A stretch of 45,545 nt of DNA from Deltaproteobacteria bacterium (GTDB lineage Bacteria; Desulfobacterota; Desulfobacteria; Desulfobacterales; C00003060): contig JAUVJO010000002.1 of assembly GCA_030592345.1 (NCBI GenBank), forward strand, positions 1 through 45,545, read 5' to 3'. Numbering within the stretch: the stretch's first letter is position 1; each line of letters opens with the position of its first letter. Of the stretch, positions 1,468 to 45,545 are shown one piece after another. The position numbers were made by a program, and so were the translations under genes. The notes under the pieces are model-generated. The model was not told the DNA's origin, made no database searches, and worked only from the letters and a program-made list of their open reading frames with translations.

Positions 1468-3906
1468 TTATTCTGCAGGAAACACCATGTATCCAACCAC
1501 CTCGGTCGTATGATTTGTTTCAGTGTTGCGGGATTGCTCTTCGTCTATTTGTACATCAACCCCATTGGCATCTTTCATTTTCCAGCGCACATTGGCCGTA
1601 TCGCGCCCGTCGGTCGTCTGCATGTCAGCAAGAAACACCGGAGGGTTTATAAACGACCCAGCGAAAGAAATCGCATGTAAGCCATGAGTTACGACATCCT
1701 GGGTCTTATTTACCGCAAAAGTCATGCCGTCTGTGGTCCCGGAGGAAGCTTCCCATGCAATAACGGATATCTCCTCCATGGCGTGTTCCTGAGCATTTGC
1801 TTCCTGCTCTTGCATCCGGAATTCAAAGCCGTTCGTGGTGATGTTTCTTACCCTGCTGCTGACAGCATCTGATTCGTTAAAGGTGGTGATAGCTGTGATT
1901 ACCACGGGAGGTTCATTAAAGACCTTATCAAAGGATAGTGCCGCAAAGGAGCTTGTATTATTCGTATTAAATCTACCGGCCTCCACCAGGGTCCCGTCCG
2001 CTAAGGTATAGCCGCCAGATTCCATGACAACATAGCTCACCGTCTCTTGGGGATGTGCTCCATCCAGATAACCCCACTCCTGAACACGGATCTCAAAACC
2101 GGACGTACCCGCATTGCGTATCCTGATCACGGCAGGGTCATCGTCATTGGAACTCATCGGCTTTGCAATCACGACCGGATCGAAAAATGCCTGACCAAAG
2201 TCTACCAGCTTCCAATCGTGATCCACCTGGATTTCACCGATTTTCATAAGGGGAAACCCGGGCCTTGACACAGGATCGGACGGGTCAAAGTTGTAATGGA
2301 CCTCAACGCCATCTCCAAGCCCGTCAGCATCCGAATCAAGGTCCAAGAGATTCACCAGGCCGTCACTATCATCGTCGGCATCCCATCCGTCTTCTGTCCA
2401 GAAGTTCACTTCGTCTCCATCATTCATCCCGTCTCCATCAGTATCCGCGACGCTGGGGTCTGTGCCGTAATGATCGAGCTCTTCTATGTTTGACAAACCA
2501 TCGCCATCAGTGTCTGCGGTTGGGTCTATTGGAGAAAACACCATGTACCCTACGACTTCCGTAGTATGCGCTGTTTCGCTGTCGCCGGATTGCTCTTCGG
2601 ACACATTCACATCGACCCGATACAAATCCTTTTCGCCACGGCGCAGATTGGCCGTATTGCTCCCGTCGGTTGTCTGCATGTCAGCAACAAAAACCGGAAC
2701 GTTCATGAACGATTCATTGAAAGAAATCGTATGAGACTGATCAGTTACCACATCCTGGGTCTTATCCACCTCAAAGGCAATACCATCCATAGTTCCGGAG
2801 GAAGTTTCCCATGCGATAACCGATATCTCCTCTGTAGCATGCTCCTGAACATTCGCTTCTTGCTCTTGCATGTAAAACTCAAAGCCGTTCACGCTGATAT
2901 TTCTTACCCTGCCACAGACCGCGTCAGCTTCGTTAAAGGTGGTGATAGCTGTGATTACCACCGGCGGTTCATTGAAGGCTCGATCGAAAGATACTGCCGC
3001 AAATGAGCCTGTATTATTCGTTTCAAACTTACCGGCCTCTACCAGGGTCCCGCCCAAGGTGTAGCTACCGGATTCCATGACAATATAGCTCACAGTCTCT
3101 TCGGAACGTGCTCCGTCCAGATAGTTCCATTCCTGAACACGTATTTCAAAACCGGTCCTGTCCACATCGCGGATCCTGATTACGGCAGGGTCATCATCAT
3201 TGGAGCCGATAGGTTCGGCAACCACGACCGGGGCAAAAAACATCTTATTGAATGCAACCCTCTTCCAATTGTGATCCACACTCGTTTCACCAATCTCCAG
3301 AATGGGAACCTGAGGCATTGACTCAGGATCAGACGGATCAAACCCGTAATGGACTTCTGTACCATCCGCAAAACCGTCATCATCTGCATCCCAATCCAAG
3401 AGATTCACCAAGCCGTCACCATCGTCATCCGCATTCCAGCCGTCTTGCCAAAGGTCCACTTCATCCCCATCATTTATCCCGTCGCCATCCGTATCCCTGT
3501 TGTTGGGGTCTGTACCGTAGACACCTGTTTCATCTTCATCGCAAATCCCGTCGCCGTCAGAATCGACAAACTCAAGCGTACGAGCCACCTCGTTGGAATA
3601 TTCACCCTCATTACCATAAGTATCGTAAGCAGTTGCCGCGAAGTAATACGTGTTGCCACCCTGAAGGTTGGCGACTGTGCATGTAGTTTCGTTACCCACA
3701 TCCATACAAAATTCGTAATCTCCGCTTACATTACCGTAATGGACCTTATAGCCACTGAGGTCTTGCTCGGTATTTTGATTCCAGGCCAGATTCACCTGGG
3801 CTGAATGCGCACTTGCACCAAGCATAAGTATCAGGCCTAACGCTAATACGTAGGGCAATGCCCCTGGTTTGAGAAACCTGGCAAAAACAAACCGTAACGA
3901 TAACAT
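1468..3906 (-). CDS. Secreted 812-aa adhesin-like protein: signal peptide, FN3, then two copies of a module made of TSP3 Ca-binding repeats plus three H-type-lectin-like beta-sandwich sub-repeats
   Basis: The long ORF has an N-terminal hydrophobic signal (LALGLILMLGASAHSAQ). FN3-like segment: VNLAWNQNTEQDLSGYKVHYG...YYFAATAYD. DxDxDG repeats: DSDGDGICDEDE, DTDGDGINDGDE. The sub-repeats take the form PVVITAITTFNEADAVCGRVRNISVNGFEF...EEISVIAWE. The H-lectin assignment is tentative. Confidence 0.9.
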   Translation of the reverse strand: MLSLRFVFARFLKPGALPYVLALGLILMLGASAHSAQVNLAWNQNTEQDLSGYKVHYGNVSGDYEFCMDVGNETTCTVANLQGGNTYYFAATAYDTYGNEGEYSNEVARTLEFVDSDGDGICDEDETGVYGTDPNNRDTDGDGINDGDEVDLWQDGWNADDDGDGLVNLLDWDADDDGFADGTEVHYGFDPSDPESMPQVPILEIGETSVDHNWKRVAFNKMFFAPVVVAEPIGSNDDDPAVIRIRDVDRTGFEIRVQEWNYLDGARSEETVSYIVMESGSYTLGGTLVEAGKFETNNTGSFAAVSFDRAFNEPPVVITAITTFNEADAVCGRVRNISVNGFEFYMQEQEANVQEHATEEISVIAWETSSGTMDGIAFEVDKTQDVVTDQSHTISFNESFMNVPVFVADMQTTDGSNTANLRRGEKDLYRVDVNVSEEQSGDSETAHTTEVVGYMVFSPIDPTADTDGDGLSNIEELDHYGTDPSVADTDGDGMNDGDEVNFWTEDGWDADDDSDGLVNLLDLDSDADGLGDGVEVHYNFDPSDPVSRPGFPLMKIGEIQVDHDWKLVDFGQAFFDPVVIAKPMSSNDDDPAVIRIRNAGTSGFEIRVQEWGYLDGAHPQETVSYVVMESGGYTLADGTLVEAGRFNTNNTSSFAALSFDKVFNEPPVVITAITTFNESDAVSSRVRNITTNGFEFRMQEQEANAQEHAMEEISVIAWEASSGTTDGMTFAVNKTQDVVTHGLHAISFAGSFINPPVFLADMQTTDGRDTANVRWKMKDANGVDVQIDEEQSRNTETNHTTEVVGYMVFPAE
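1471..3582 (-). repeat. Internal tandem duplication, 2 x 1056 nt (352 codons), inside the 812-aa gene
   Basis: Nucleotide anchors recur at exactly +1056: aacaccatgt at 1481 and 2537, and gttaaaggtggtgatagctgtgattaccac at 1876 and 2932. The two protein modules are highly similar by eye. Confidence 0.85.
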
Positions 3907-4188
3907 GATAGTACCTCCTCTGATTTATTATTTTTCCCAGGGGACGCGCACCCCAAAGGAGGTACTATGTCCCGCCCGGCAGCCCTGCTGCCATATCCGT
4001 GTCATGCGGACTTAGGTCAGTAGCTTTGCGCCCCACCCTTTCAAGTGGTTTGCCTTTTTCAAACGGTAAATGTCTCAAAGAGCTTTTCTGGCAAGCGGAT
4101 GATGCAAGATGAGTGCCAATGAAAAAACGACCTGGGGGCGTTACCAATCGATCTTGCTAGTCGAACCAATTTTTGTTACAAAGGGCCC

Positions 4189-34474: not shown

Positions 34475-34875
34475 GGCTTTCTCCTTTGCCTTTTTCCATA
34501 AATCGCCGTTGGTTCTAACTTCGGCCAATATATTGAACCACGAAGGACACGAAGGGGCACGAAGGGGCCTATTTCACAAATAATTCTTCGTGTTCTTCAA
34601 AAAATAAGCATCGGGCATCTATTGTCAAACCTCACCAAGAAAGCGCACAAATGTCTCTGGACAAACCAGCCCCTGTTTTTTCTCGACATCGTGGACTACT
34701 CTGATATACTCAGCATGCTCTGTCCCCTGGAGAAAGCATAGAGTGCTTCATTTCACCATAATTCCTGCAACCGGCAATACACCTCAGCCCTCTCACCCAA
34801 AGAATGGGGGAAAGGGAGATATGAGCAAGGACTAGCTTGCAGGAGGAGAGTTTGGCCTCCGTTCACGGGGGGGCT

Positions 34876-36873
34876 ATGCCTATGATGCAATATCTTCTCA
34901 TTCTGTTGGCTCTCATGTTCTCATTGTTAAATGGTTGTGCACTGCAACCAGGCCCTGTTTGTGTAAAGAATGGAAAAATCTATGGCACGACAAGCGGAAT
35001 CTTTCGAAGCCAGTGGGATGATTACTATGAGCGCGCTCTTTCCTATATGGAAGGGGAGTGTTATCCGGCGGCCCTCTGTGACCTGAATGAAGCTTTAAAA
35101 CAGAGGTTCAGGGATCAGTGGATGGCACGAACCTATGGGATTCATTTCATTGATTACTTTCCCCACCGGGAAAAAGGCCTGATCCATTATTTGACGGGTG
35201 ATTATGATGCTGCCAAATTAGAACTGGAGATCTCCCTGCAACATGAACTATCTGCAAAAGCCTTTTTCTACCTCGACAAGGTCCGCAAACGCATCATGGA
35301 ACAGGAAAAACACGTCGTATCCGTTCCTCGCCTTATAGTTAAGCTCCCATCCGGTAGATCTGAAGGATCTGATGAAGTATGGACTAGAGATGACCCTGTT
35401 ATTATTTCGGGAATAGCAAAAGACGAACAACATATCTCGGAGATTGTCCTGGCAGGAAGACCTGTTTTCATAGAGGTCTCTGCGAAGCGTGTGGAGTTCA
35501 GGGAGGATTTAAAGCTGACTCAGGGCAGACATGAGATCGATATAACGGCCCGAAACCTTTTGGGCGGTACTGCAAAAAGTAAGATCATCATACATGTTGA
35601 CAGAACAGGCCCACTTATCATGCTGGAAAAATTCGATCCGGATGTTGGGATAGATGGATATATTTATGACGAATCCGGTCTCATATCCCTCGTTGTGGAC
35701 GGAGAACCGGTGTTTGTCCCAAAGGGAAAGGAAGTGGCTTTTACTGTGCCCATAAGGCCTGGTATCAAAAGCGTGACCCTTTTGGCGACGGATAAACTGG
35801 GGAATCAAACAAAGGCCCGGGCAAACGCAGGCATGTCGGCCCACAGCCCATATCCGCTACTGCTGGCACAAAACTTAGTGGACCTTGCAACGTCTGCCGG
35901 GCAATCTCCCCTGGCCCTTCTGGGTTCCAAGATCACCCGAAAACCTGAAATCACGCTGAGTGGATGGCCGGATCAAGAGACTGCGTTCTTAGAAAGGATA
36001 TATATTGACGGACAGGTAAGAGGTCAAAGCAATATAGAAGAGCTGATCATAGACAACATGCCAGTTAGCCAGCGGGCAGGCCGCATCATATTCTTCAATC
36101 ACCTCATTACGCTGAAAGAAGGGAAAAATACGATCAGAATCAGGGCCAGGGATGAGTCAGCCAACACAAGCATAAAAGAGATCTGCATTACACGGCGCAT
36201 TCCCAGGGTATTTCAACTGGAACAGCGCTACAGCCTTGCCATGTATCCTTTTGACAATACATATCTGACCGCTGAGCCGGGACTGTTCCAATATCTTTTC
36301 TTAAGGAATCTTGCAGACCGGAATCGCTTTCAGATTATGGTAAGGAAAAAACTAAAAAAGATCCTGCATGAACAGAAACTTGACCTTGGCAGTAAATCCC
36401 TGCCTCAGGAAGTAAAACCACCCCTTTCCACGTTTTTAGGGACTATTTACGAAACAAGAAACGGGATTGAGATTGTTACACGCCTTATTGATAATAAAAC
36501 GTCCAAGATACTGGCCGTTAAGGATGTCTACAACGATTCTAAAGATCGTACCGCATTAACGTCCCTTGCAGACAAGCTGGCTGAAAAATTCCACAGGGAG
36601 TTTCCCTTGATAGACGGCATTATCACTCAAAACACAGAAAAAAGGCTTATTACAGACTTTGGAGAAGAGAAACTAAGGATGGGATGGCCCTTAATCGTGT
36701 ATCGTGAAGAGGAGCCTGGACGCGGTCTTATCACAGGCAGTATACTGGGCTCTGATACGGAAATCATCGCACATGCTTGCATTGATCAGTTGATGAAGGG
36801 AAAATATGGGGCCACGCTTGTAAACGATCAAGAACTTGAAGTCAGAATAGGGGACAGAGTGATAACTCAATGA
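34876..36873 (+). CDS. Large lipoprotein: TPR-like N-terminal region, Ig-like repeats and a C-terminal CsgG/LpoB/FlgT-like module
   Basis: Lipobox ...FSLLNGC. Ig-like pattern ISGIAKDEQHISEIVLAGRPV...LTQGRHEIDITARNLLG. C-terminus RYSLAMYPFDNTY...FQIMVRKKLKKILHEQKL...PLIDGIITQ. The start is ambiguous (track TTG 34837, or ATGs at 34876, 34882 and 34885). Confidence 0.8.
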   Translation: MPMMQYLLILLALMFSLLNGCALQPGPVCVKNGKIYGTTSGIFRSQWDDYYERALSYMEGECYPAALCDLNEALKQRFRDQWMARTYGIHFIDYFPHREKGLIHYLTGDYDAAKLELEISLQHELSAKAFFYLDKVRKRIMEQEKHVVSVPRLIVKLPSGRSEGSDEVWTRDDPVIISGIAKDEQHISEIVLAGRPVFIEVSAKRVEFREDLKLTQGRHEIDITARNLLGGTAKSKIIIHVDRTGPLIMLEKFDPDVGIDGYIYDESGLISLVVDGEPVFVPKGKEVAFTVPIRPGIKSVTLLATDKLGNQTKARANAGMSAHSPYPLLLAQNLVDLATSAGQSPLALLGSKITRKPEITLSGWPDQETAFLERIYIDGQVRGQSNIEELIIDNMPVSQRAGRIIFFNHLITLKEGKNTIRIRARDESANTSIKEICITRRIPRVFQLEQRYSLAMYPFDNTYLTAEPGLFQYLFLRNLADRNRFQIMVRKKLKKILHEQKLDLGSKSLPQEVKPPLSTFLGTIYETRNGIEIVTRLIDNKTSKILAVKDVYNDSKDRTALTSLADKLAEKFHREFPLIDGIITQNTEKRLITDFGEEKLRMGWPLIVYREEEPGRGLITGSILGSDTEIIAHACIDQLMKGKYGATLVNDQELEVRIGDRVITQ

Positions 36874-37472
36874 ATAGACTCTCTCCTGAAGAAGAACGGC
36901 AACTCCTTTACGAATGCATAATCAGTGGCAAGAAGCATAAACTGGTTCAGCAATACTGGAACCTGGTGTACCATACTGTTCGGAAAACATTCACCGTCAA
37001 ACACGTCCCCTTTACTCAGGAGGACATAGAAGATCTTCGGAATGAAGTATTTGTACAGCTTTTTGATAAGGGATGTTGGCGATTGAGGCAGTACAGAGAG
37101 GAACTCGGCCATGGGCTTGCAGGATGGATCACGTTGATTGCCAACCGGACCGTGCTGAATTATCTCAGGAAAAGAGGCTTTGACAGCCTGTCATGGCAGA
37201 ACACCAGGGTTCCGATTGAAGAAATACTTGACCTGAAGCAGGAAAAGAACAGTTTAGAAGTCATGGAAGAGAGGCGTCTCATTCAAGATGCTATGGAAAA
37301 ACTCCCTTCACGAGACCGGTTGGTTCTAAAGCTCCATTATTATCATGAACTATCTTTGCTAGACGTTGCTTCTGCTATCCACAGAACTGCCGGCGCTACC
37401 TATACGATCAAGTCGAGAGCGATCAAGCGACTAAAGGCGCTGATTAACGTAAGCTCCAAAAGTGGTATATAA
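36870..37472 (+). CDS. ECF-type RNA polymerase sigma-70 family factor
   Basis: Region 2 (EDLRNEVFVQLF...GWITLIANRTVLNYLRKR) and region 4 (LPSRDRLVLKLHYYHELSLLDVASAI...YTIKSRAIKRLKAL). Its ATG overlaps the lipoprotein stop (ATGA, 36870-36873). Confidence 0.85.
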   Translation: MNRLSPEEERQLLYECIISGKKHKLVQQYWNLVYHTVRKTFTVKHVPFTQEDIEDLRNEVFVQLFDKGCWRLRQYREELGHGLAGWITLIANRTVLNYLRKRGFDSLSWQNTRVPIEEILDLKQEKNSLEVMEERRLIQDAMEKLPSRDRLVLKLHYYHELSLLDVASAIHRTAGATYTIKSRAIKRLKALINVSSKSGI

Positions 37473-37528
37473 AGAAATTTTGTTTGAAAATCCCGTTTTC
37501 TGTGTATTCATATTAAAAAGGGATCATC

Positions 37529-38158
37529 ATGAAATCACGATGTATTGAGATAGCAGTGCTTGCCAAGTATATCGAGGGCCGTCTTTCTGATAAAGACAGG
37601 GACAGGATTGAGGAACATCTATCAGAGTGTGATACATGCCTGGAGGAGTTTGTGATTGCAAACACCCTTCTTAAGGACCATGATTTGATCGAATGTGAGC
37701 CCGTGTCGGAAGAGGTTGCCCTGTCTGCCTTGAAAAGCTTGAGCATTCCAAAAGAATTAAAGAAATTCTACGCCTGGATCACAAAGGTATTAGTCCCTGA
37801 TTCAGCAGGGCAACCCGCCTTTGCCACTGTCCGGAAGCCAGATGCAGCATCATCCATGGATTATATCAGCATTAAAAAGGATATGAATGATCTGCAGGCA
37901 GAGATGTATATTGAAAAAACACAAGATAATAAAGTCGGCATCCGGGTTAGAGTGCTCAAGGACAATATAAGCGCAAGGAATGTCAGGCTCACTTTGATAC
38001 GGCAGGGAGGAGGGATTGTGTCACGTCTTTTAAAAGGCGATTATGTGCTTTTTGAGGACCTTCCCTTTGGCTCTTATCGCTTTGTTGTTGAACAGGATGC
38101 ATTGGAAAAGGGAGAGTACCTTTTTGAAATCAATGAGGCAGGTCTCAATGAAGAATAA
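37529..38158 (+). CDS. Putative anti-sigma factor (N-terminal zf-HC2) with no obvious TM helix and a C-terminal beta-sandwich-like domain
   Basis: CIEIAVLAKYIEGRLSDKDRDRIEEHLSECDTCLEEF (Hx3Cx2C). I see no hydrophobic stretch of 15 or more residues in its 209 aa. It sits directly downstream of the ECF sigma gene. Confidence 0.7.
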   Translation: MKSRCIEIAVLAKYIEGRLSDKDRDRIEEHLSECDTCLEEFVIANTLLKDHDLIECEPVSEEVALSALKSLSIPKELKKFYAWITKVLVPDSAGQPAFATVRKPDAASSMDYISIKKDMNDLQAEMYIEKTQDNKVGIRVRVLKDNISARNVRLTLIRQGGGIVSRLLKGDYVLFEDLPFGSYRFVVEQDALEKGEYLFEINEAGLNEE

Positions 38159-38159
38159 G

Positions 38160-40205
38160 ATGGCCCGGACTCTCTGTCTTGAGGCCACCCTGGAAAAGGG
38201 CCGTCTTAAGATCAGCATCCACAAACCGGATGATGTGATCTGGTCTTATGAGGATATTCCAGCCCCTATGGACAGGATCGAGACACGCTGCCGCAAAATG
38301 ATAGAGACCTTGAACAGAGCCACCGGTGAGGGCTCTACCTGTGGCTCTGACGTATTGACAAAGCTCAAAGCAGTGGGCCGCATGCTGTCCGACGAGTTAT
38401 TGACACAGGACATCAAAAAAGATCTCAAAAAAACCCGCGCCAATTACTTGATCTTGAGACTTGATGATCATCTGGTTCATATTCCATGGGAATTGCTCTG
38501 TGTTGGCGAGGGATTTCTCTGCCAGCGTTTCAACATGGGCCGATTGGTCAGGACCCGGCAGAAAACAGCACAGAGCAGTCATCGGAACTTGAGTAGACCG
38601 TTAAAGATGTGGATATTGTCTAATCCCAGCGGTGATCTGGCCAGCGCCGGCCTGGAAGGGCTTGAGATTTGCCGGTGCATGGATCGGATGAATCAGGAAA
38701 AAACCGTTGTTGACGCTTCTCTTGATTCTGACGTAACACACGATGAAATTAGAGAGAACATAAGGAACTATGATTTTGTCCACTTTGCAGGCCATGCTGA
38801 TTATGATTCGCAAAACCCGGGAGAAAGCGGATGGAAACTGGCGGGCGGTAATCTTACGGCCCGTGACATTTATAAGATGGCCGGCGGTTCGGCCATGCCC
38901 GCTCTTGTTTTTTCCAATGCATGTCAATCCGCCCGCACAGAGGCGTGGAAATGGAAAAAAAATGTTAAGGATGACTCCTTCGGGCTGGCCAATGCCTTTA
39001 TGCTTGCAGGTGTGAGACATTACGTGGGGACCTTCTGGGAGATATTGGATGAGCCGAGTAGTCGTTTTGCCTTTGAGTTTTATGAACACCTGCTTTCCGG
39101 CAGAACCGTTGGCGAAGCTGTTAGACTCTCCAGAGCGGTGTTGATCCGGGAATACGGTCCTGATTTCATTGGCTGGGCAAGCTATCTCCTGTATGGAGAC
39201 CCAACACTCGGTTATTTTGATCAAAACGAGGAGACCGAAGATCTGACAAAGCCAGAGCCCCCTGCCAGCCTAGATCCGGCAAACATCCATACAAGGGGAA
39301 AATGGTTCGGCTCTCATGGGAACATACCGAAATCAAAAGAGAAGCGGCATTGGTGGGCGGCTTCTCTGGTGATCCTTGGGTTGGTCTTTGGTGTGATGAC
39401 GGGCTACTATGTATACAAGCCGGATTTTTCCGGGCCGCCTACAGATTCAGAGACCCTTACAATCCTTCAAGAAGAGGCCGACAAAAAACGAGAGCGAATA
39501 GACCGGTTGTTCAAGGAGTTGGAGATCATTGCAGCATCGCCTGATGCCTTGGCTTATGATGAAGCGCCATCCGATGCTTGGACTTCCGGGCACTTAACCC
39601 TTGCAATGGATTTTGATTCACAAAGATGCTTCTTACACCGGGGAAAAGAAAAGCTCATTGCCTCGGTCATTGAGACCCAGATACTTGAGCACACCCGGGT
39701 TACATTGCTGGAGCGAATATCACTCGATATAATACTGGAAGAGCTAAAGCGGGCTAATTCCAAATTGGTGGCCCCGAAGAACAGGTTGCTGCCGGACCTG
39801 CTGACTGCAAAGCTTATCCTCTTTCTCGAAGTGGACCTTTCCGATGCGCAGCCCTTTGTCTTAATGCATCTGGCAGACACAAAAAAGGGGAGCGTTGTTG
39901 ACGTTCTGATTGAACCATTGGAGACCGCTCAACCTGTGTTAGCCCAGAAAAAAAAGTTATCCGAAAACCTTTTGAAAAAGCTGAACAATCTCTATCCGCT
40001 CAGGGGCAGGATTTCAGGAATAACAGGTAAAGCGATCAGGCTCAATATTGGAAGTGAGGCAGGTGTCACAATTGGTCAGCGGTTCAAGGTCGCTGATAAA
40101 GATTTAACCCTGGAAGTCGTCTCCATCCAACCGGACACAAGCACTGCCAGAGCGGAAAAGGGAGGATTGATCCTGGAAAAAGAATGGCGGGTAGAGGCAA
40201 TATGA
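38160..40205 (+). CDS. CHAT-domain (caspase-fold) protease with one TM helix and a C-terminal extracytoplasmic CsgG/FlgT-like module
   Basis: CHAT pattern LILRLDDHLVHIPWELL, catalytic-type His in VHFAGHA and Cys in LVFSNACQS, then ...GVRHYVGTFWEILD. TM helix WWAASLVILGLVFGVMTGYYVY. C-terminus LTLAMDFDS...LLERISLDIILEELK...PLRGRISGITGKAIRLNIGSEAGV. ATG 38160 is 1 nt after the anti-sigma stop. Confidence 0.85.
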   Translation: MARTLCLEATLEKGRLKISIHKPDDVIWSYEDIPAPMDRIETRCRKMIETLNRATGEGSTCGSDVLTKLKAVGRMLSDELLTQDIKKDLKKTRANYLILRLDDHLVHIPWELLCVGEGFLCQRFNMGRLVRTRQKTAQSSHRNLSRPLKMWILSNPSGDLASAGLEGLEICRCMDRMNQEKTVVDASLDSDVTHDEIRENIRNYDFVHFAGHADYDSQNPGESGWKLAGGNLTARDIYKMAGGSAMPALVFSNACQSARTEAWKWKKNVKDDSFGLANAFMLAGVRHYVGTFWEILDEPSSRFAFEFYEHLLSGRTVGEAVRLSRAVLIREYGPDFIGWASYLLYGDPTLGYFDQNEETEDLTKPEPPASLDPANIHTRGKWFGSHGNIPKSKEKRHWWAASLVILGLVFGVMTGYYVYKPDFSGPPTDSETLTILQEEADKKRERIDRLFKELEIIAASPDALAYDEAPSDAWTSGHLTLAMDFDSQRCFLHRGKEKLIASVIETQILEHTRVTLLERISLDIILEELKRANSKLVAPKNRLLPDLLTAKLILFLEVDLSDAQPFVLMHLADTKKGSVVDVLIEPLETAQPVLAQKKKLSENLLKKLNNLYPLRGRISGITGKAIRLNIGSEAGVTIGQRFKVADKDLTLEVVSIQPDTSTARAEKGGLILEKEWRVEAI

Positions 40206-40573: not shown

Positions 40574-40629
40574 AGCTGTTAAGCTATTAAGCTATTAAGC
40601 TATTGAGCTATTGAGCTATTGAGCTGCTC
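40574..40629. repeat. Seven tandem 8-nt units (agctatta/agctattg) in the OMP gene leader
   Basis: agctgtta agctatta agctatta agctattg agctattg agctattg agctgctc. Confidence 0.95.
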
Positions 40630-40706: not shown

Positions 40707-42068
40707 ATGCAAAGGCATTTCTTTACTTTGAGTTTCTTGGTTATCCTTTGGCCTCTCCAGTTGAATTTTGTCTTTGCAGGTGGTGAGTATGTCCAAATCG
40801 CCTCATCTCCCAACCCTGTTGGCTCAGGAGCAAGGGCGCTGGGCATGGGCGGCGCGTTCATAGCAGTAGCCGACGATGCTACTGCAGCTTCCTGGAATCC
40901 GGGAGGTCTTATTCAATTGAAAAGGCCGGAAATATCTGTTGTGGGTAACTGGTTTCATCGAACGGAAGATAACGAGTTTGGAGACAATCCCGAAGCCAGC
41001 GGATCGCAGACCGTATCCGGGCAGGACATCAACTACCTCAGTATGGCCTATCCCCTCACTCTCTTCAATCGAAACATGATCGTTTCCCTGAACTATCAGC
41101 ATCTTTACGATTTCACACGCGAGTGGGGTCTTTCGTTTGCATTTACAAGCAAGCATAATGTTGGTGCCATATCAACGCGAAAGGAAAAAGTGGATTACCA
41201 GCAGAAAGGAGGCCTATCTGCTCTTGGTCTTGCCTATTGCATTCAGATTATTCCACAGCTTTCCTTTGGTTTTACACTAAACATCTGGGATGATGACATA
41301 ACCAGGAATAGGTGGCAGGAAAAGACCCACTTCAAAAGTTCAGAAACCGTTGAAGTACCAAGGCCTCCCCCTATGCCCCCTTTCAAACATACTAATGAAT
41401 TTCAATGCGACTGTATGCAGGAGTATTCATTCAGCGGTTTTAACACCAATATAGGCATTTCGTGGCGCGCCACTGATAAGTTAACGGTGGGGCTGGTCTT
41501 TAAGTCGCCTTTTACTGCAGATCTGAAGCATGAAACCACGACTGAAATCATTGAAAACAACAGCCCGAAAATCAGTACGAAAACAAGTCAAGATGAAAAA
41601 CTGGACATGCCTATGTCATATGGCGCTGGACTATCATACCGGTTTTCAGACAAGTTTACTATAGCGGCAGATATCTATAGGACCGAATGGCAGCATTTTG
41701 TCCTCACAGATTCAGATGGGTACGAGAAATATCCTATGACCGGGAAGTCTGTCAACGAATCTAATATAGATCCCACGTATCAGGTTCGACTCGGGGCAGA
41801 GTATCTGTTCATTAATCCGAAATCGCGCTATGTCATTCCTATCAGGTGCGGTCTGTTTTACGACCCTGCCCCGGCCGATGGAAGTCCTGATGATTATTAT
41901 GGCTTCAGCCTCGGCTCCGGTATTGGAATCGGGAGGTATGTCTTTGATGTCGCCTTTCAGTATCGGTTTGGCAATGATGTCGGCGATTCAATGGTTCAAA
42001 ATTATGATAATTTTTCCCAGGATGTGGACGAATATATGGTCTATTCATCATTGATTATCCATTTTTGA
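40707..42068 (+). CDS. Outer-membrane beta-barrel protein (FadL/TodX- or PorV-like)
   Basis: Signal peptide. GARALGMGGAFIAVADDATAASWNPGGL is the signature N-terminal motif of these barrels. Alternating beta-strand pattern with a terminal ...SSLIIHF. GAGGAGG Shine-Dalgarno sequence. Confidence 0.8.
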   Translation: MQRHFFTLSFLVILWPLQLNFVFAGGEYVQIASSPNPVGSGARALGMGGAFIAVADDATAASWNPGGLIQLKRPEISVVGNWFHRTEDNEFGDNPEASGSQTVSGQDINYLSMAYPLTLFNRNMIVSLNYQHLYDFTREWGLSFAFTSKHNVGAISTRKEKVDYQQKGGLSALGLAYCIQIIPQLSFGFTLNIWDDDITRNRWQEKTHFKSSETVEVPRPPPMPPFKHTNEFQCDCMQEYSFSGFNTNIGISWRATDKLTVGLVFKSPFTADLKHETTTEIIENNSPKISTKTSQDEKLDMPMSYGAGLSYRFSDKFTIAADIYRTEWQHFVLTDSDGYEKYPMTGKSVNESNIDPTYQVRLGAEYLFINPKSRYVIPIRCGLFYDPAPADGSPDDYYGFSLGSGIGIGRYVFDVAFQYRFGNDVGDSMVQNYDNFSQDVDEYMVYSSLIIHF

Positions 42069-42107
42069 CTAACGTGTAAGAAAGAAGCCTTCCCTGTGTA
42101 TTAGTAT
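42062..42107 (+). promoter_or_regulatory. Conserved box A (tttttgactaacgtgtaagaaa) plus downstream TAGTAT
   Basis: The 22-nt box at 42062-42083 overlaps the OMP stop codon. TAGTAT at 42102-42107. The next gene starts at 42168. Confidence 0.5.
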
Positions 42108-42167
42108 GGTAAGGGGGCTGGAAATTGAAAATGGGAACTCGAAAAAGCTAATAGGAGGTAATTTATT

Positions 42168-42878
42168 ATGAAAAGAATTACAATGGTTTTTGTCTGGTGC
42201 ATTATCTATTTGTTCTTGGTCCTGTTGAATCTAGGATTCACAGAAGACAAACACGCAAAATGCGCTGAAGATTGCAATCGGGATTTTCAGGTCGTTTTTC
42301 CCAAAGGACACTTTGTAGATCTCGACGGTAATCCTCCTCTGGTTTTGTCTTGGTATGACCCTCAAACTCAATTGAAAGATCCTGATGCTTACTTTGGGGT
42401 TAATCAGAGCTATAAGGTGTCGATCTCCGAAGATGAGTTTTTTGAGGAACTAATTTGTGTAGAGTGGATCTCGAATAAATCCGTCTGGGTGCTAAGCGAC
42501 TGGATCGTAAAGGAAATAGGTCTTGAGCGTGGAAGAATATATTATTGGAAGGCGCAGAAAGTCAGTCAAAGTCAAGGTTGTGTAGTATCGACGGATACGG
42601 GCTCATTTGTTGATGACTCACATATTATGGTTGGGTGGAATGTTTATATTTGGGGTGCAATATGTGATGACACTGTGGTGCAAGTGTATTCGCACACAGG
42701 TCCATGTGAGAACTCAACCGAGCTTCTAGCTGAATTTATACCATATGGGTGTTCGTGTGATTTCTGTTTATATAGTGGGTTTCTCCCTCCCAGAAAATCC
42801 TACTGCGTCCATTATCGAGACGAATGGAAGACTTTTTATGGGTCCGAGGTGATCTGTGATTTTTGGCCGTGTGAATGA
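42168..42878 (+). CDS. Secreted cysteine-rich hypothetical protein (236 aa)
   Basis: Signal peptide MKRITMVFVWCIIYLFLVLLNLG. 12 Cys in the mature part. AGGAGG Shine-Dalgarno sequence 8 nt upstream. I recognise no family. Confidence 0.7.
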   Translation: MKRITMVFVWCIIYLFLVLLNLGFTEDKHAKCAEDCNRDFQVVFPKGHFVDLDGNPPLVLSWYDPQTQLKDPDAYFGVNQSYKVSISEDEFFEELICVEWISNKSVWVLSDWIVKEIGLERGRIYYWKAQKVSQSQGCVVSTDTGSFVDDSHIMVGWNVYIWGAICDDTVVQVYSHTGPCENSTELLAEFIPYGCSCDFCLYSGFLPPRKSYCVHYRDEWKTFYGSEVICDFWPCE

Positions 42879-43076
42879 AACTTATTGAAAGAAACAAAGC
42901 GGGTGCGCTCATCATTTCAGCCAGAATGTGTTGACGACGGACAAAGGCCAAACTATAGGGGCACATTATGCTGTGCCCCTGTGGCCTTATTTGGCATCAA
43001 CAAAGGTTGCTCACCCAACACCCATCCTTTTTCCGAATCCGTCTCCCTTTTTGCCCAACAATGCCTGTCTACGATT

Positions 43077-43115
43077 GGATAGAGATATGCCCTCCCAAAG
43101 GGCATATCTCTATCC
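43077..43115 (+). terminator. Strong hairpin (16-bp stem, 7-nt loop), terminator-like, downstream of the 236-aa gene
   Basis: ggatagagatatgccc-tcccaaa-gggcatatctctatcc. It is followed by accgttttgaacctttt, which is only a weak T-tract. Confidence 0.45.
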
Positions 43116-43174
43116 ACCGTTTTGAACCTTTTGTCCCATCCTGACACCTGATCCTGTTTTCCCTCCTGATAATT

Positions 43175-43224
43175 TTTTTGACTGACGTGTAAGAAAAGAG
43201 GACTCTCTCGGGTATTCTTAGAAT
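43175..43224 (+). promoter_or_regulatory. Conserved box B (tttttgactgacgtgtaagaaa) plus downstream TAGAAT
   Basis: Box at 43175-43196. TAGAAT at 43219-43224. Confidence 0.5.
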
Positions 43225-43614
43225 AAAAGGAAGAGATTGAAACTGTCCACTTAACGGGTATGAAATGCCACTATTGCTTGCTCAAAGTAAGATATCAAAC
43301 TTAACAGAAAATTCTTTGGAGAATTAGCTTGGTCGGAGGCAGAGAATAAGTACCCGCCAGTTTAGACAGGAGATGACACCGATGTTTTCCCGCAATCAAT
43401 GGCTCAAGAAGCAAAGCAAGCACAATACCTTTATCCGGCACCGCCGTTCTGGCACTTAAACCCGTTGAAGGCCGGATTTCCTGAAGAAGGAAAGCTATCA
43501 ACTGTCTTCTTGTCCGAACGGCGCGTGAAGGAAGGGGAGCGTTTTTTTACTTCATGAAGTGCTTTACACGAGTAGCTATAAAAACAATTTTATCATCTAT
43601 TAATGGAGGATACA

Positions 43615-43968
43615 ATGATGTCAAAAAAACTCTTTATTGGTTTTGTCTCGATTATTGCGGTAGTAATGTTTATCTGTGCTCCTGGCTATTCTGAAACCAT
43701 GACTTTCCCCTTGGAGGAAACGGATTCAGAAATGATTCCTTTCCCCGAGGAAGGCTTTTTCCAGTCAGTAGACGAACTGAGTGAAACGACGGACGGGGAC
43801 TGCCGTGAAATTGGCAAGTTGTGTATCGAACGTAAATGCGGGTGTGATGGCGCAGATCACCATACGTACCGCAAATATATTAAAACATCTTATTGCGAGG
43901 GCTCGCCGCCTTACCTAAAAGTGGAGATATACGGGGTATGTGAGCATACGGGATCTTGTGCGCAGTGA
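43615..43968 (+). CDS. Small secreted protein: signal peptide, acidic region and a Cys-rich C-terminal domain (117 aa)
   Basis: GGAGG lies 5 nt upstream of ATG 43615. MMSKKLFIGFVSIIAVVMFICAPGYS, then an acidic stretch (EETDSEMIPFPEE...DELSETTDGD), then 7 Cys in the last 62 aa or so. Confidence 0.65.
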   Translation: MMSKKLFIGFVSIIAVVMFICAPGYSETMTFPLEETDSEMIPFPEEGFFQSVDELSETTDGDCREIGKLCIERKCGCDGADHHTYRKYIKTSYCEGSPPYLKVEIYGVCEHTGSCAQ

Positions 43969-44079
43969 ATCGGTACATAGGGTTATGGCTGACAGACCGC
44001 GGTTGAGGGATAACTATAGGAAAGGAATTCCCTTTTTGAGAGAAAGAAGTATGGCAAGAACTGGATTGTGGGGGGACTA

Positions 44080-44139
44080 GGGGACGGGTATTGATATATT
44101 GATATACTGTCCTTTATCAATATATCAATACCCGTCCCC
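44080..44139. repeat. Perfect 25-bp inverted repeat with a 10-nt loop
   Basis: ggggacgggtattgatatattgata (44080-44104) pairs with tatcaatatatcaatacccgtcccc (44115-44139). Confidence 0.95.
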
Positions 44140-44151
44140 AATCAGCCCCAT

Positions 44152-44505
44152 GAAGAAACAAAGGAAACCGCAACAACCGGGGAGTTCGCCTCCCTTGAAG
44201 ACTTAGTCACCTCCACGGATTCATTACTAATAGACGTGCCGGTTTTGATTATCATTGGCCGGTTTGATTATACGATATGCGGTGGCGATGTAGATTGCTC
44301 GGATCGTTACAGTGTAATTAATCACGAGCAGCCCTTTTTCTCGCCTGAGGCCTCTCTTCGAGTCTCTATTGTGCCCAACTCAGGTCATGATCTTAATTTG
44401 CACAAAAACGCTCCAAGGGCTTATTTCAGAATGCTGTTGTGGGCAAACCGGTATGTCGGTGCCGTTTCCAATCTACCGGCATCGTGTGATTGTCCACAAA
44501 ATTAA
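44152..44505 (+). pseudogene. C-terminal fragment of an alpha/beta-hydrolase
   Basis: ...VPVLIIIGRFDYT...IVPNSGHDLNLHKNAPRAYFRMLLW is the typical PVLxIxGxxD ... SGH(catalytic His) C-terminal pattern. The frame is open only back to 44095, inside the palindrome. There is no nucleophile-elbow region and no plausible start. Confidence 0.5.
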
Positions 44506-44583
44506 CCCGGAAAATTCGGGGACACCATACCTATTTCTGTTCGTTCTTTGGTCTTGTGCCCGCCTTAGTTTCAGGATGCGCCC

Positions 44584-44683
44584 AAGCAAAGGCAAGAAAT
44601 TACTATTGTGTCCCCAGATTCCACACACACAGATTCCACAAGCAAAGGCAAGAAATTACTATTGTGTCCCCAGATTCCACACA
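44584..44683. repeat. Two identical 44-nt direct repeats (period 56 nt) embedded in an array of a 17-nt motif
   Basis: aagcaaaggcaagaaattactattgtgtccccagattccacaca at 44584-44627 and 44640-44683 (44/44 identical). The motif gtgtccccagattccac recurs at 44608 and 44664, with a variant at 44696. Confidence 0.95.
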
Positions 44684-45157
44684 GATTCCAGTATGGTGTC
44701 CCCAGATTTCCACGTAGAATCATGGCATGCTGCCAATTAAATTTACACAAAACCTCTCTGCATGCATAGCAACTTGACAGCAGACCCGGATCTTATTCAG
44801 TCAAATGAGCTATTCCGCCGACCTGTTTCAACAAAAATTATGTTGACAGATCAAGAGGTTGTGACCCTCCGCCGCCGAGCAAATGCCTATTTTTTTCATC
44901 TTGGCACGATATTGGCTATTATAGCATTTTCAGGAAAACAAAAAAGGAAAGCCAAATTTGTAAACACCGTAGTAACGTAACACAGAGAAGACCATTGGCC
45001 GGGTCTCAACATTTGACATATCGTGATGCTTGTAATGTGCGTGAGAGGAAAAATGATATGACTGGAATGGGCCTCTCTTCAGGCAGAATATCGGGCAATT
45101 TCTGAACCAACGCTTTGCCCTAAGCGATCATGAGGCCCACTTCGTCTTCTCACGATT

Positions 45158-45206
45158 TTTTTGACTGACGTGTAAGAAATGAACCTCTTCCGGGTATTAT
45201 TAGTAT
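45158..45206 (+). promoter_or_regulatory. Conserved box C (tttttgactgacgtgtaagaaa) plus downstream TAGTAT
   Basis: Box at 45158-45179. TAGTAT at 45201-45206. No convincing downstream gene lies within the window. Confidence 0.45.
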
Positions 45207-45545
45207 AAAGGGCAGAGGAATGAAAATCTCCTTGTTCGGCGCTCCGTGCCTCACAACCAGCGGATTCAGCAGACTCGGCTTCACTAATTTCAGGCAGTTC
45301 AGGCTTGTTTCTTGCTGAAATGGTTATCCAGTAAGGCTTTCAGCCTAACCAGAAGGATTTCGAGCAAGCTTTAAGTAGAAACAGGGGTCGGAAGTTGAAA
45401 CGGTTCACTCAAATTTGAAATGTCGAGTAGACCGGTTTCTTCAAGCAACCAGATCGTGAAACGTCTTAGACTACGCCTCGCCGCACGCGGCTACAACATA
45501 TCATAAGATCACATCACCGTGGGTACTTGTTGGCCCCGGCCCCTC

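Follow-up and report, generated by a model that had tools for sequence, protein, structure and literature searches.

What is a 22-nucleotide (nt) box doing three times near one end of a 45,545-nt stretch of a deltaproteobacterial genome of the Desulfobacterales (contig JAUVJO010000002.1, assembly GCA_030592345.1; the whole stretch is called the window here), and which protein reads it? The box, TTTTTGACTRACGTGTAAGAAA, lies downstream of a cluster encoding an extracytoplasmic function (ECF)-type sigma factor, a zinc-finger anti-sigma factor, and a CHAT protease. An earlier note on this DNA had left two answers standing, an ECF-like bipartite promoter read by the adjacent sigma factor or an activator site combined with a sigma-70 -10 element. 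Comparison with related loci favors the first. Judged from its conservation, the box is most likely the -35 half of one bipartite promoter, TGTAAGAAA-N11/12-(C)TTGKGTATTA, and we consider it probable that this is the cognate promoter of the adjacent sigma/anti-sigma/CHAT module.

Exact matches to the box lie on the plus strand at 42062-42083 (copy A), 43175-43196 (copy B), and 45158-45179 (copy C). Copies B and C are identical, and copy A departs from them at box position 10, with A for G. No further match with three or fewer mismatches was present in the window, none of 100 dinucleotide-preserving shuffles of the window gave a match (0/100), and the chance expectation was 0; three copies are far beyond that expectation. 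Aligned with their flanks, the sites also share what follows: GKGTAT starts 34-35 nt past the box start (42096, 43210, and 45192), TAGWAT 40-44 nt past it (42102, 43219, and 45201), and AAGG..GAWTGAAA comes next. The combination GTAAG-N13-19-GKGTAT occurs three times in the window, compared to 0.14 expected. The 12-13 nt between box and GKGTAT are pyrimidine-rich and poorly conserved among A, B, and C. The positions, the single mismatch, the downstream blocks, and the unconserved spacer described in the earlier note were all recovered, the last with the qualification that its composition is skewed toward pyrimidines. Read as promoters, copy A would combine a -35 core, TGTAAGAAA at 42075-42083, with a -10 block, GTGTATTAG (42096..42104, +), and start transcription at ~42108-42111; copy B would combine GTAAG at 43189-43193 with GGGTATTCT (43210..43218, +) and start at ~43222-43225; and copy C would combine GTAAG at 45172-45176 with GGGTATTAT (45192..45200, +) and start at ~45204-45207.

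Relatives of the locus came from two kinds of search. A box scan of a metagenome collection returned four real relatives (loci L008, L009, L013, and L014) and four unrelated matches in other DNA, and in all four relatives the box is followed by GTGTATTAT or GGGTATTAT. A collection of representative genomes, in which the source genome is not included, gave only two unrelated box matches, both in distantly placed organisms (Photorhabdus and a metagenome-assembled genome [MAG] of Oscillospiraceae). Further loci were fetched around homologues of the sigma factor with 40-83% identity and then scanned for the motif; the named homologues are from Desulfonema magnum and Candidatus Magnetomorum, and the others are from MAGs of Desulfobacterales or Desulfobacteraceae. 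Two strong sites and a weak one before the anti-sigma gene were found in L016/L017 (sigma 83% identical), two sites in L018 (71%), two in D. magnum L021 (54%; 11034 on the plus strand and 5895 on the minus strand), one in L023 (54%), two in L031 (49%), one strong site plus weaker variants in L024 (48%), and two in L025 (45%). Ca. Magnetomorum (L026, 41%) carries two weaker sites, whose scores of 18-19 bits coincide with the 95th percentile of the shuffle maxima. L027 (53%) and L032 (40%) show the motif only weakly or not at all, and in L032 it is gone.

Across these relatives, the constrained core is (C)RTGTAAGAA(A)-N11/12-(C)TTG(T/G)GTATTA, or GTAAG-N15(14-16)-GKGTAT. Among 14 aligned sites from ~9 lineages, the columns that vary little or not at all are TGTAAG(A/G)A and G.GTAT(T), separated by a spacer that is ungapped and divergent in sequence. 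Over ~25 sites, most have a 15-nt spacer and a few have one of 14 or 16 nt; two blocks held ~14-17 nt apart across a divergent spacer are what an ECF promoter is expected to show. The widely conserved portion of the 22-mer is its right third only (TGTAAGAAA). The left half (TTTTTGACTGAC) is invariant only in the near relatives of the window, reads TTTTTAAACCGAC, TTTTGTAACCGCA, or TTTAAACTTCCA in L016 and L018, and is unrecognizable in D. magnum and beyond (L023, L024, L025, and L031). In the lineage of the window, where it is invariant, it is probably an UP-like or accessory contact.

When the window was searched with a -35/-10 matrix built from non-window sites only, copy A came first (38.4 bits), copy B second (24.1 bits, with a 16-nt spacer), and copy C third (23.7 bits), and the fourth match reached 10.7 bits. 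The related loci, which amount to 190 kb and were picked for carrying the box or a sigma homologue, contained 24 matches of 18-39 bits; across 200 shuffles, the best score never exceeded 23.8, and its 95th percentile was 19.4. Strong matches were all intergenic, pointed in the same direction as the next gene, and lay beside the sigma cluster, and the matrix found no motif at the other ~35 genes of the window. By its pattern of conservation, the motif is a real, non-chance, evolutionarily conserved element of promoter type.

Conservation across relatives also bears on the second reading of the earlier note, in which a sigma-70 promoter with a weak -35 and with TATTAT or TAGWAT as its -10 would be served by a class II (MarA/SoxS-like) activator bound to the asymmetric box. 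Three features fit such an arrangement: the full 22-mer, longer than a -35 element, is invariant in seven copies of the window lineage while the spacer drifts; GTGTATTAT includes TATTAT, a 5/6 match to TATAAT; and the box center lies ~41-45 nt upstream of the predicted start. However, the letters conserved at the -10 are G.GTAT and not TAnnnT, several strong sites read TATTAG and have no T at -7, and TAGWAT is unconserved, being replaced in relatives by TTTAAT, GAGAGT, TATGGT, AAGGGT, and others. A sigma-70 scan found no plus-strand -35/-10 pair at any copy, and the 34 nt from TTGACT in the box to TAGWAT do not suit a housekeeping promoter. An activator site is further disfavored by the divergence of the left half of the box in D. 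magnum and the four loci beyond it, and what the cluster conserves is the sigma gene and not any gene for an activator. An activator-dependent sigma-70 promoter is therefore unlikely, and this half of the earlier proposal was not borne out. Two narrower candidates were also rejected. TTGACT taken as a -35 has no conserved -10 16-18 nt downstream and is absent from distant relatives, and a CRP/FNR-like palindrome fails on inspection, as the symmetry is limited to a CACGTG core present in some copies and does not extend into the flanks.

What ties the bipartite motif to the adjacent sigma factor is its place in the cluster. Strong copies lie between the sigma and anti-sigma genes at L021 11034 (D. 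magnum), L023 11110, L024 10930, and L031 8625, in each case with the end of the -10 block 22-28 nt before the anti-sigma ATG and a Shine-Dalgarno sequence in between, which is the geometry expected of a promoter that would yield a short-leader mRNA. Placement directly before the anti-sigma gene is what usually marks a cognate ECF promoter, and the related loci combine location at the anti-sigma operon with co-inheritance of motif and sigma gene. The gap between the sigma and anti-sigma genes is only 57 nt in the window and in L016. It holds a weak fourth site, GTTTG-N15-GTGTAT (37482..37507, +), 21 nt before the anti-sigma ATG, within a degenerate copy (TTTTGTTTGAAAATCCCGTTTTCTGTGTATT, 37478-37508) that is identical in L016 and sits at the position homologous to the strong sites of D. 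magnum, L023, L024, and L031. Near-invariant GTAAG and GKGTAT at a spacing of ~15 nt, co-occurrence with the sigma gene, and placement before the anti-sigma gene (strong in four lineages, weak in two) together support the earlier suggestion of an ECF-like bipartite promoter belonging to this sigma factor.

The sigma factor itself (200 amino acids [aa], 36870..37472, +), proposed here as the reader of the motif, is best described as an atypical ECF-sized sigma. Pfam models for r2, r4, and r4_2 match it, it contains regions 2 and 4 only, and it scores 77 bits against TIGR02937 (sigma70-ECF), above the cut-off of 42.9. A length of ~200 aa, sigma2 and sigma4 domains alone, and a zf-HC2 gene 57 nt downstream are the marks of an ECF (group 4) sigma. 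Its best match to an ECF structure is SigW (E = 0.02), and the r4 and r4_2 models score about equally. Against the FliA_WhiG model, it reaches 41.9 bits, below the cut-off of 189.6, through region 4 only, and it has no region 3.

Several observations weigh against assigning the motif to this sigma factor. With GTAAG for its -35 and G(T/G)GTAT for its -10, the motif lacks the classical ECF signatures GAAC/AAC and CGTC/CGT; the AAC/CGT signature is typical of the ECF family and is not universal. The closest solved structures to region 4 of the sigma are those of FliA and WhiG (E = 2e-6). Neither the window nor the related loci have a copy upstream of the sigma gene itself, and none was found upstream of the adjoining 678-aa gene; with no motif before the sigma gene, autoregulation would be confined to the anti-sigma gene, and in the window, it would be weak. 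The fourth site, at 10.7-12.2 bits, is insignificant on its score alone. The mean best score over 30 mononucleotide shuffles of the window was 8.4 bits, but one shuffle came to 28.3, higher than copies B and C, so that their ranking rather than their absolute score carries weight. For copies B and C, the nearest long open reading frame (ORF) is ~390 nt or more away. Last, the linkage of motif and sigma gene is an association and does not by itself identify the protein that reads the site.

One of these points would also be accommodated if the motif were an alternative-sigma promoter read by another factor encoded elsewhere, such as a sigma-28/FliA-like or general-stress sigma, and the ECF sigma were linked to it by position only. 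The sigma-28 (FliA/SigD) consensus is TAAA-N15-GCCGATAA, and in the motif here, TAAG-N15-GTGTATTA, the spacer after TAAR is likewise 15 nt and the 8-nt -10 block is similarly arranged (GnnKATWA); GGGTAT is in addition the -10 of SigB. Both likenesses serve as leads only, and the lack of a site before the sigma gene would fit such a reader. On closer comparison, the sigma-28 -10 differs from the block here at four of its eight letters, and the targets include no flagellar, chemotaxis, or stress genes. The SigB-like form GTTTAA-N12-15-GGGTAT was rejected, as its spacing does not match the 16-17 nt counted from GTGTAA and the sigma lacks region 3. The FliA-like region 4 is moreover that of this very sigma, so the resemblance to sigma-28 promoters supports the adjacent factor as reader. 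The motif also travels with orthologues of this sigma, with strong copies beside those of 49-100% identity, weaker ones at 41%, and none at 40%, and directly precedes the gene for its own anti-sigma factor. We regard another sigma as a rather improbable reader, and the adjacent ECF sigma remains the preferred one.

Not all that is conserved after the box would belong to the promoter. The third block, AAAGGGG-N7-(A/T)TGAAA, begins ~9-10 nt past the -10 block and places a start codon 21-23 nt past its end, a spacing equal to that of the Shine-Dalgarno sequence and ATG-AAA of the anti-sigma genes. By its letters and position, this AAGG..GAWTGAAA block is a predicted 5'-proximal Shine-Dalgarno sequence plus start codon and not a promoter element. 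At copy A, AAGGGGG-N7-TTGAAA (42125..42151, +) would open a mini-ORF of 8 codons, whose end falls within the Shine-Dalgarno sequence of the downstream 236-aa gene; at copy B, the mini-ORF has 5 codons (43237-43254, +); and at copy C, the ORF has 32 codons (45220-45318, +). This correspondence leads us to infer that the anti-sigma promoter, along with the 5' end that follows it, was the ancestor of the promoter copies, and the ribosome-binding site may perhaps have been retained as a leader-stabilizing or regulatory feature.

Conservation of the third block in the transcribed part, together with the long untranslated stretches after copies B and C, could instead point to a structured RNA (a leader, a riboswitch, or a small RNA) transcribed from farther upstream. 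RNAalifold found 0 conserved pairs in the 14 aligned sites, and an Rfam search of 42000-45545 gave no match at the gathering score, with matches at E<=1 only to eukaryotic microRNA models on a palindrome at 44069-44150. At copy A, such an RNA would have to start inside the coding end of the upstream gene. A structured RNA is scarcely credible as the explanation of the box.

The genes that follow the promoter copies are of one broad kind. Box A encloses the TGA stop codon (42066-42068) of a gene for a FadL-like outer-membrane protein and ends 84 nt before the ATG, at 42168, of a gene for a 236-aa Cys-rich protein whose N-terminus has a hydrophobic stretch resembling a signal peptide (42168..42878, +), close upstream of it as the earlier note had reported. 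D. magnum (L021 -5895) has the same layout, just past or overlapping the FadL-like stop codon, and on that comparison the arrangement appears ancient. The N-terminal ~140 aa of the 236-aa protein are common to L014_242, L016_216, and the LamG-fused L009_449 (449 aa). Copy B had been placed before a gene for a 117-aa Cys-rich protein. It is upstream of that gene and does not directly adjoin it: the box is ~420 nt 5' of the coding region, which is called as 116 aa (43618..43968, +) or as 117 aa from an ATG at 43615, and the leader of this presumed target would be ~390 nt. Judged by eye, this protein also has a hydrophobic, signal-peptide-like N-terminus. Copy C faces the end of the window, as stated earlier, with no long ORF after it; the window ends within ~2 nt of the end of the source contig, and a search for contigs that extend past this point to the target of copy C found none.

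Among relatives, the motif precedes NHL-repeat and beta-helix proteins in L014, LamG proteins in L009 and L016, and the FadL-like outer-membrane protein in L026. In L021, L024, L025, and L031, it is followed by 98-111-aa beta-sandwich-like proteins and then by cadherin/LamG/pentraxin proteins of up to ~1,900 aa. Taken together, these targets indicate that the local output consists of envelope, surface, or secreted proteins.

The DNA around copy B raises a different possibility, that the box is a cassette boundary or mobile repeat within a recombining intergenic module and has no promoter function. Box B is preceded by an intergenic module of ~200 nt (42974..43174, +) with a perfect 18-bp hairpin at 43076-43116, and the module precedes the box also at L008 1442-1660, L009 10-215 and 1999-2055, and L014 3214-3417. 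Its occurrence on both sides of one L009 gene, with unit and box repeated between successive genes, means that the repeated unit is larger than the promoter. Set beside window 45119-45225 and 43173-43242, L013 1129-1236 joins DNA like that upstream of copy C to the leader and gene downstream of copy B exactly at the box, and several contigs end at or near a box. This join may reflect a rearrangement or duplication within the strain at the repeat, or it may be a chimera that arose at a repeat during metagenome assembly. No terminal inverted repeats or target-site duplications were found, and the cluster contains no gene for a recombinase. The box lacks palindromic symmetry and its orientation always matches that of the downstream gene; conservation confined to blocks, across a spacer that has diverged and at a constant distance from the start codon of the anti-sigma gene, is the pattern of a promoter. 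The preference in the earlier note for a promoter element over a mobile repeat held up, and a purely recombinational role is very improbable.

If the boxes are promoters of the adjacent module, the gene order of that module suggests how they might be controlled. A gene for a 678-aa TPR/Ig-like protein (34837-36873) overlaps the sigma gene, which is followed by genes for a 209-aa zf-HC2 anti-sigma factor of the zinc-binding anti-sigma (ZAS) type, with no evident membrane helix (37529..38158, +), and for a 685-aa CHAT (caspase-like) protease whose gene overlaps that of the anti-sigma factor (38148..40205, +). The CHAT protein has both catalytic motifs (HFAGHA and SNACQS), a single membrane helix in mid-protein with the CHAT domain N-terminal to it, and, as read from its sequence, no N-terminal signal peptide, which fits a cytoplasmic N-terminus. 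If the N-terminus is cytoplasmic, the CHAT domain is on the same side as the helix-less anti-sigma factor, and cleavage would be topologically possible. In the resting state, the zinc-finger anti-sigma factor would hold the sigma factor. On a signal, the co-encoded, membrane-anchored CHAT protease would probably cleave the anti-sigma factor, and the freed sigma factor could guide RNA polymerase to the promoters, GTAAG being read by region 4 and GKGTAT by region 2 and transcription starting ~6-9 nt past GKGTAT. The promoters would then drive the secreted Cys-rich proteins of 236 aa and 116/117 aa plus whatever follows copy C, and in relatives the LamG, NHL, beta-helix, and cadherin-like surface proteins. 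Because the anti-sigma/CHAT operon also bears the motif, the response may include negative feedback.

The FadL/Toluene_X-like gene (40707..42068, +) whose stop codon lies within box A is a conserved member of the cluster. Its product also matches models for BamG (89 bits) and PorV/PorQ (51 bits), all below their cut-offs, and the gene always accompanies the sigma/CHAT cluster and large adhesin-like proteins. This company hints at a role in the export or anchoring of surface proteins rather than in fatty-acid uptake. The split anti-sigma/CHAT gene pair (37529-40205) is likewise conserved in D. magnum and several metagenomic relatives.

In general architecture, the sites resemble promoters of ECF (group 4) sigma factors, such as E. 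coli sigmaE and B. subtilis SigW, SigX, and SigM: a bipartite -35/-10 with a rigid ~16-nt spacer, placed before an anti-sigma gene and a compact local envelope or secreted regulon, with a reader made of sigma2 and sigma4 only and a zf-HC2 anti-sigma factor. The closest characterized system is DdvS/DdvA of Myxococcus xanthus, in which sigma, zinc anti-sigma domain, and CHAT protease form one module, as they do here. DdvS is an ECF sigma, and its zinc-binding anti-sigma domain is fused to a periplasmic TPR-CHAT in a single transmembrane protein, DdvA (PMC6061681, PMC11506125). Four local DdvS promoters mapped by 5' rapid amplification of cDNA ends (5'-RACE) share GTAA-N16-CGT (PMC6061681), and CarD of M. 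xanthus binds AT-rich tracts (PMC6061681, PMC11506125). GTAA-N16 is common to the DdvS promoters and the motif described here, and both have an A/T tract upstream of the -35, whereas the -10 letters are CGT there and GKG(TAT) here. The likeness of the two proteins to DdvA is functional only: DdvA is one fused transmembrane protein, but the anti-sigma factor (209 aa) and CHAT protein (685 aa) here are encoded by separate overlapping genes; DdvS targets CBASS (cyclic oligonucleotide-based antiphage signaling system) and CRISPR loci, but the targets here are secreted or surface proteins; and the hosts belong to Myxococcota and Desulfobacterota, respectively. Anti-sigma factor and separate CHAT gene look like a split form of the fused DdvA, with a topology that is probably inverted. 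None of the chains matching the sigma in the Protein Data Bank at E<=10 was named DdvS, in a copy of the database whose inclusion of DdvS was left unchecked.

A second comparison is with the type III-E Craspase of Desulfonema ishimotonii, a system of Csx29 (TPR-CHAT), Csx30, and CASP-sigma in which a CHAT protease cleaves the inhibitor of an ECF-like sigma, and the sigma activates a few promoters of its own locus (PMC10028731). The logic by which CHAT frees a sigma factor is shared with the module here, as is the bacterial order. The Craspase parts Cas7-11, CRISPR RNA (crRNA), Csx30, and Csx31 are not present here, and the inhibitor is instead a classical zf-HC2 anti-sigma factor. The CHAT protein matches Csx29 weakly, at E ~2e-4 over ~100 aa. 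A literature search for TGTAAG in connection with ECF returned nothing relevant, and CHAT goes unmentioned in the main text of the ECF re-classification paper PMC7826278.

Joining these comparisons gives a more specific picture, which we put forward with considerable doubt: a hitherto undescribed, split CHAT-controlled sigma switch in Desulfobacterales. In it, a membrane-anchored protease with its CHAT domain facing the cytoplasm, a topology opposite to that of DdvA and with no CRISPR involvement, would cleave a soluble zinc-finger anti-sigma factor and free an ECF-sized sigma that resembles sigma-28 in its -35-reading domain and in the geometry of its promoters (TAAG-N15-GTGTATTA). The freed sigma might turn on an exchangeable array of secreted Cys-rich, lectin-like, and adhesin proteins by way of portable cassettes of promoter, Shine-Dalgarno sequence, and mini-ORF that were copied from the anti-sigma start and reshuffled at the box.

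Elsewhere in the window, a cyclic diguanylate (c-di-GMP)-I riboswitch (RF01051, 79 bits, full length) lies at 3975-4064 on the minus strand, directly upstream of an 812-aa ORF (1468-3906, -) with fn3, bacterial TSP3, and H-type lectin domains. Domains and riboswitch together indicate a surface protein that is likely under c-di-GMP control. The palindrome at 44069-44150 has 36-nt arms that are 86% complementary, a 10-nt loop, and internal TATTGATA repeats, and the other public contigs with the 116-aa gene all end within it. Two exact 45-nt direct repeats (44583-44627 and 44639-44683) occur in a 1.2-kb stretch without a called gene and are flanked by a 19-nt inverted repeat, GGGGACACCATAC / GTATGGTGTCCCC (44512-44530 / 44691-44709). 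An 89-aa ORF at 44236-44505 (+) corresponds to no called gene, has no Pfam match, and resembles what is left of the C-terminal part of a hydrolase; from the 116-aa gene to box C, the sequence has the look of DNA in decay. Short tandem repeats are present upstream of the FadL-like gene (AGCTATTA x6.5, 40574-40625) and between clpB and the 678-aa gene (CACGAAGGGG x3, 34539-34568), and the remainder of the window consists of ordinary chromosomal genes, such as those for PFOR, RACo, PBP1, ClpB, and TrkH.

As a promoter, the motif is an ordinary kind of element, and its interest comes mainly from the unusual split CHAT/anti-sigma module beside which it stands. To our knowledge, control of an ECF sigma linked to CHAT has so far been characterized only in M. 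xanthus DdvA and in type III-E CRISPR; if the assignment proposed here is true, the module represents a split, non-defense form of such control. For a previously uncharacterized sigma/anti-sigma/CHAT/outer-membrane protein module, there is now a concrete, comparatively validated promoter motif, by which its regulon can be predicted in a simple genome scan, and the promoters themselves could be used as reporters to find the inducing signal. The module is found in several lineages of Desulfobacterales, including Desulfonema magnum and possibly Ca. Magnetomorum. Its local targets carry signal-peptide-like segments and range from Cys-rich, LamG, NHL, and beta-helix proteins to giant cadherin-like adhesins, a composition that suggests a role for the sigma switch in controlling cell-surface remodeling in filamentous or multicellular sulfate reducers.

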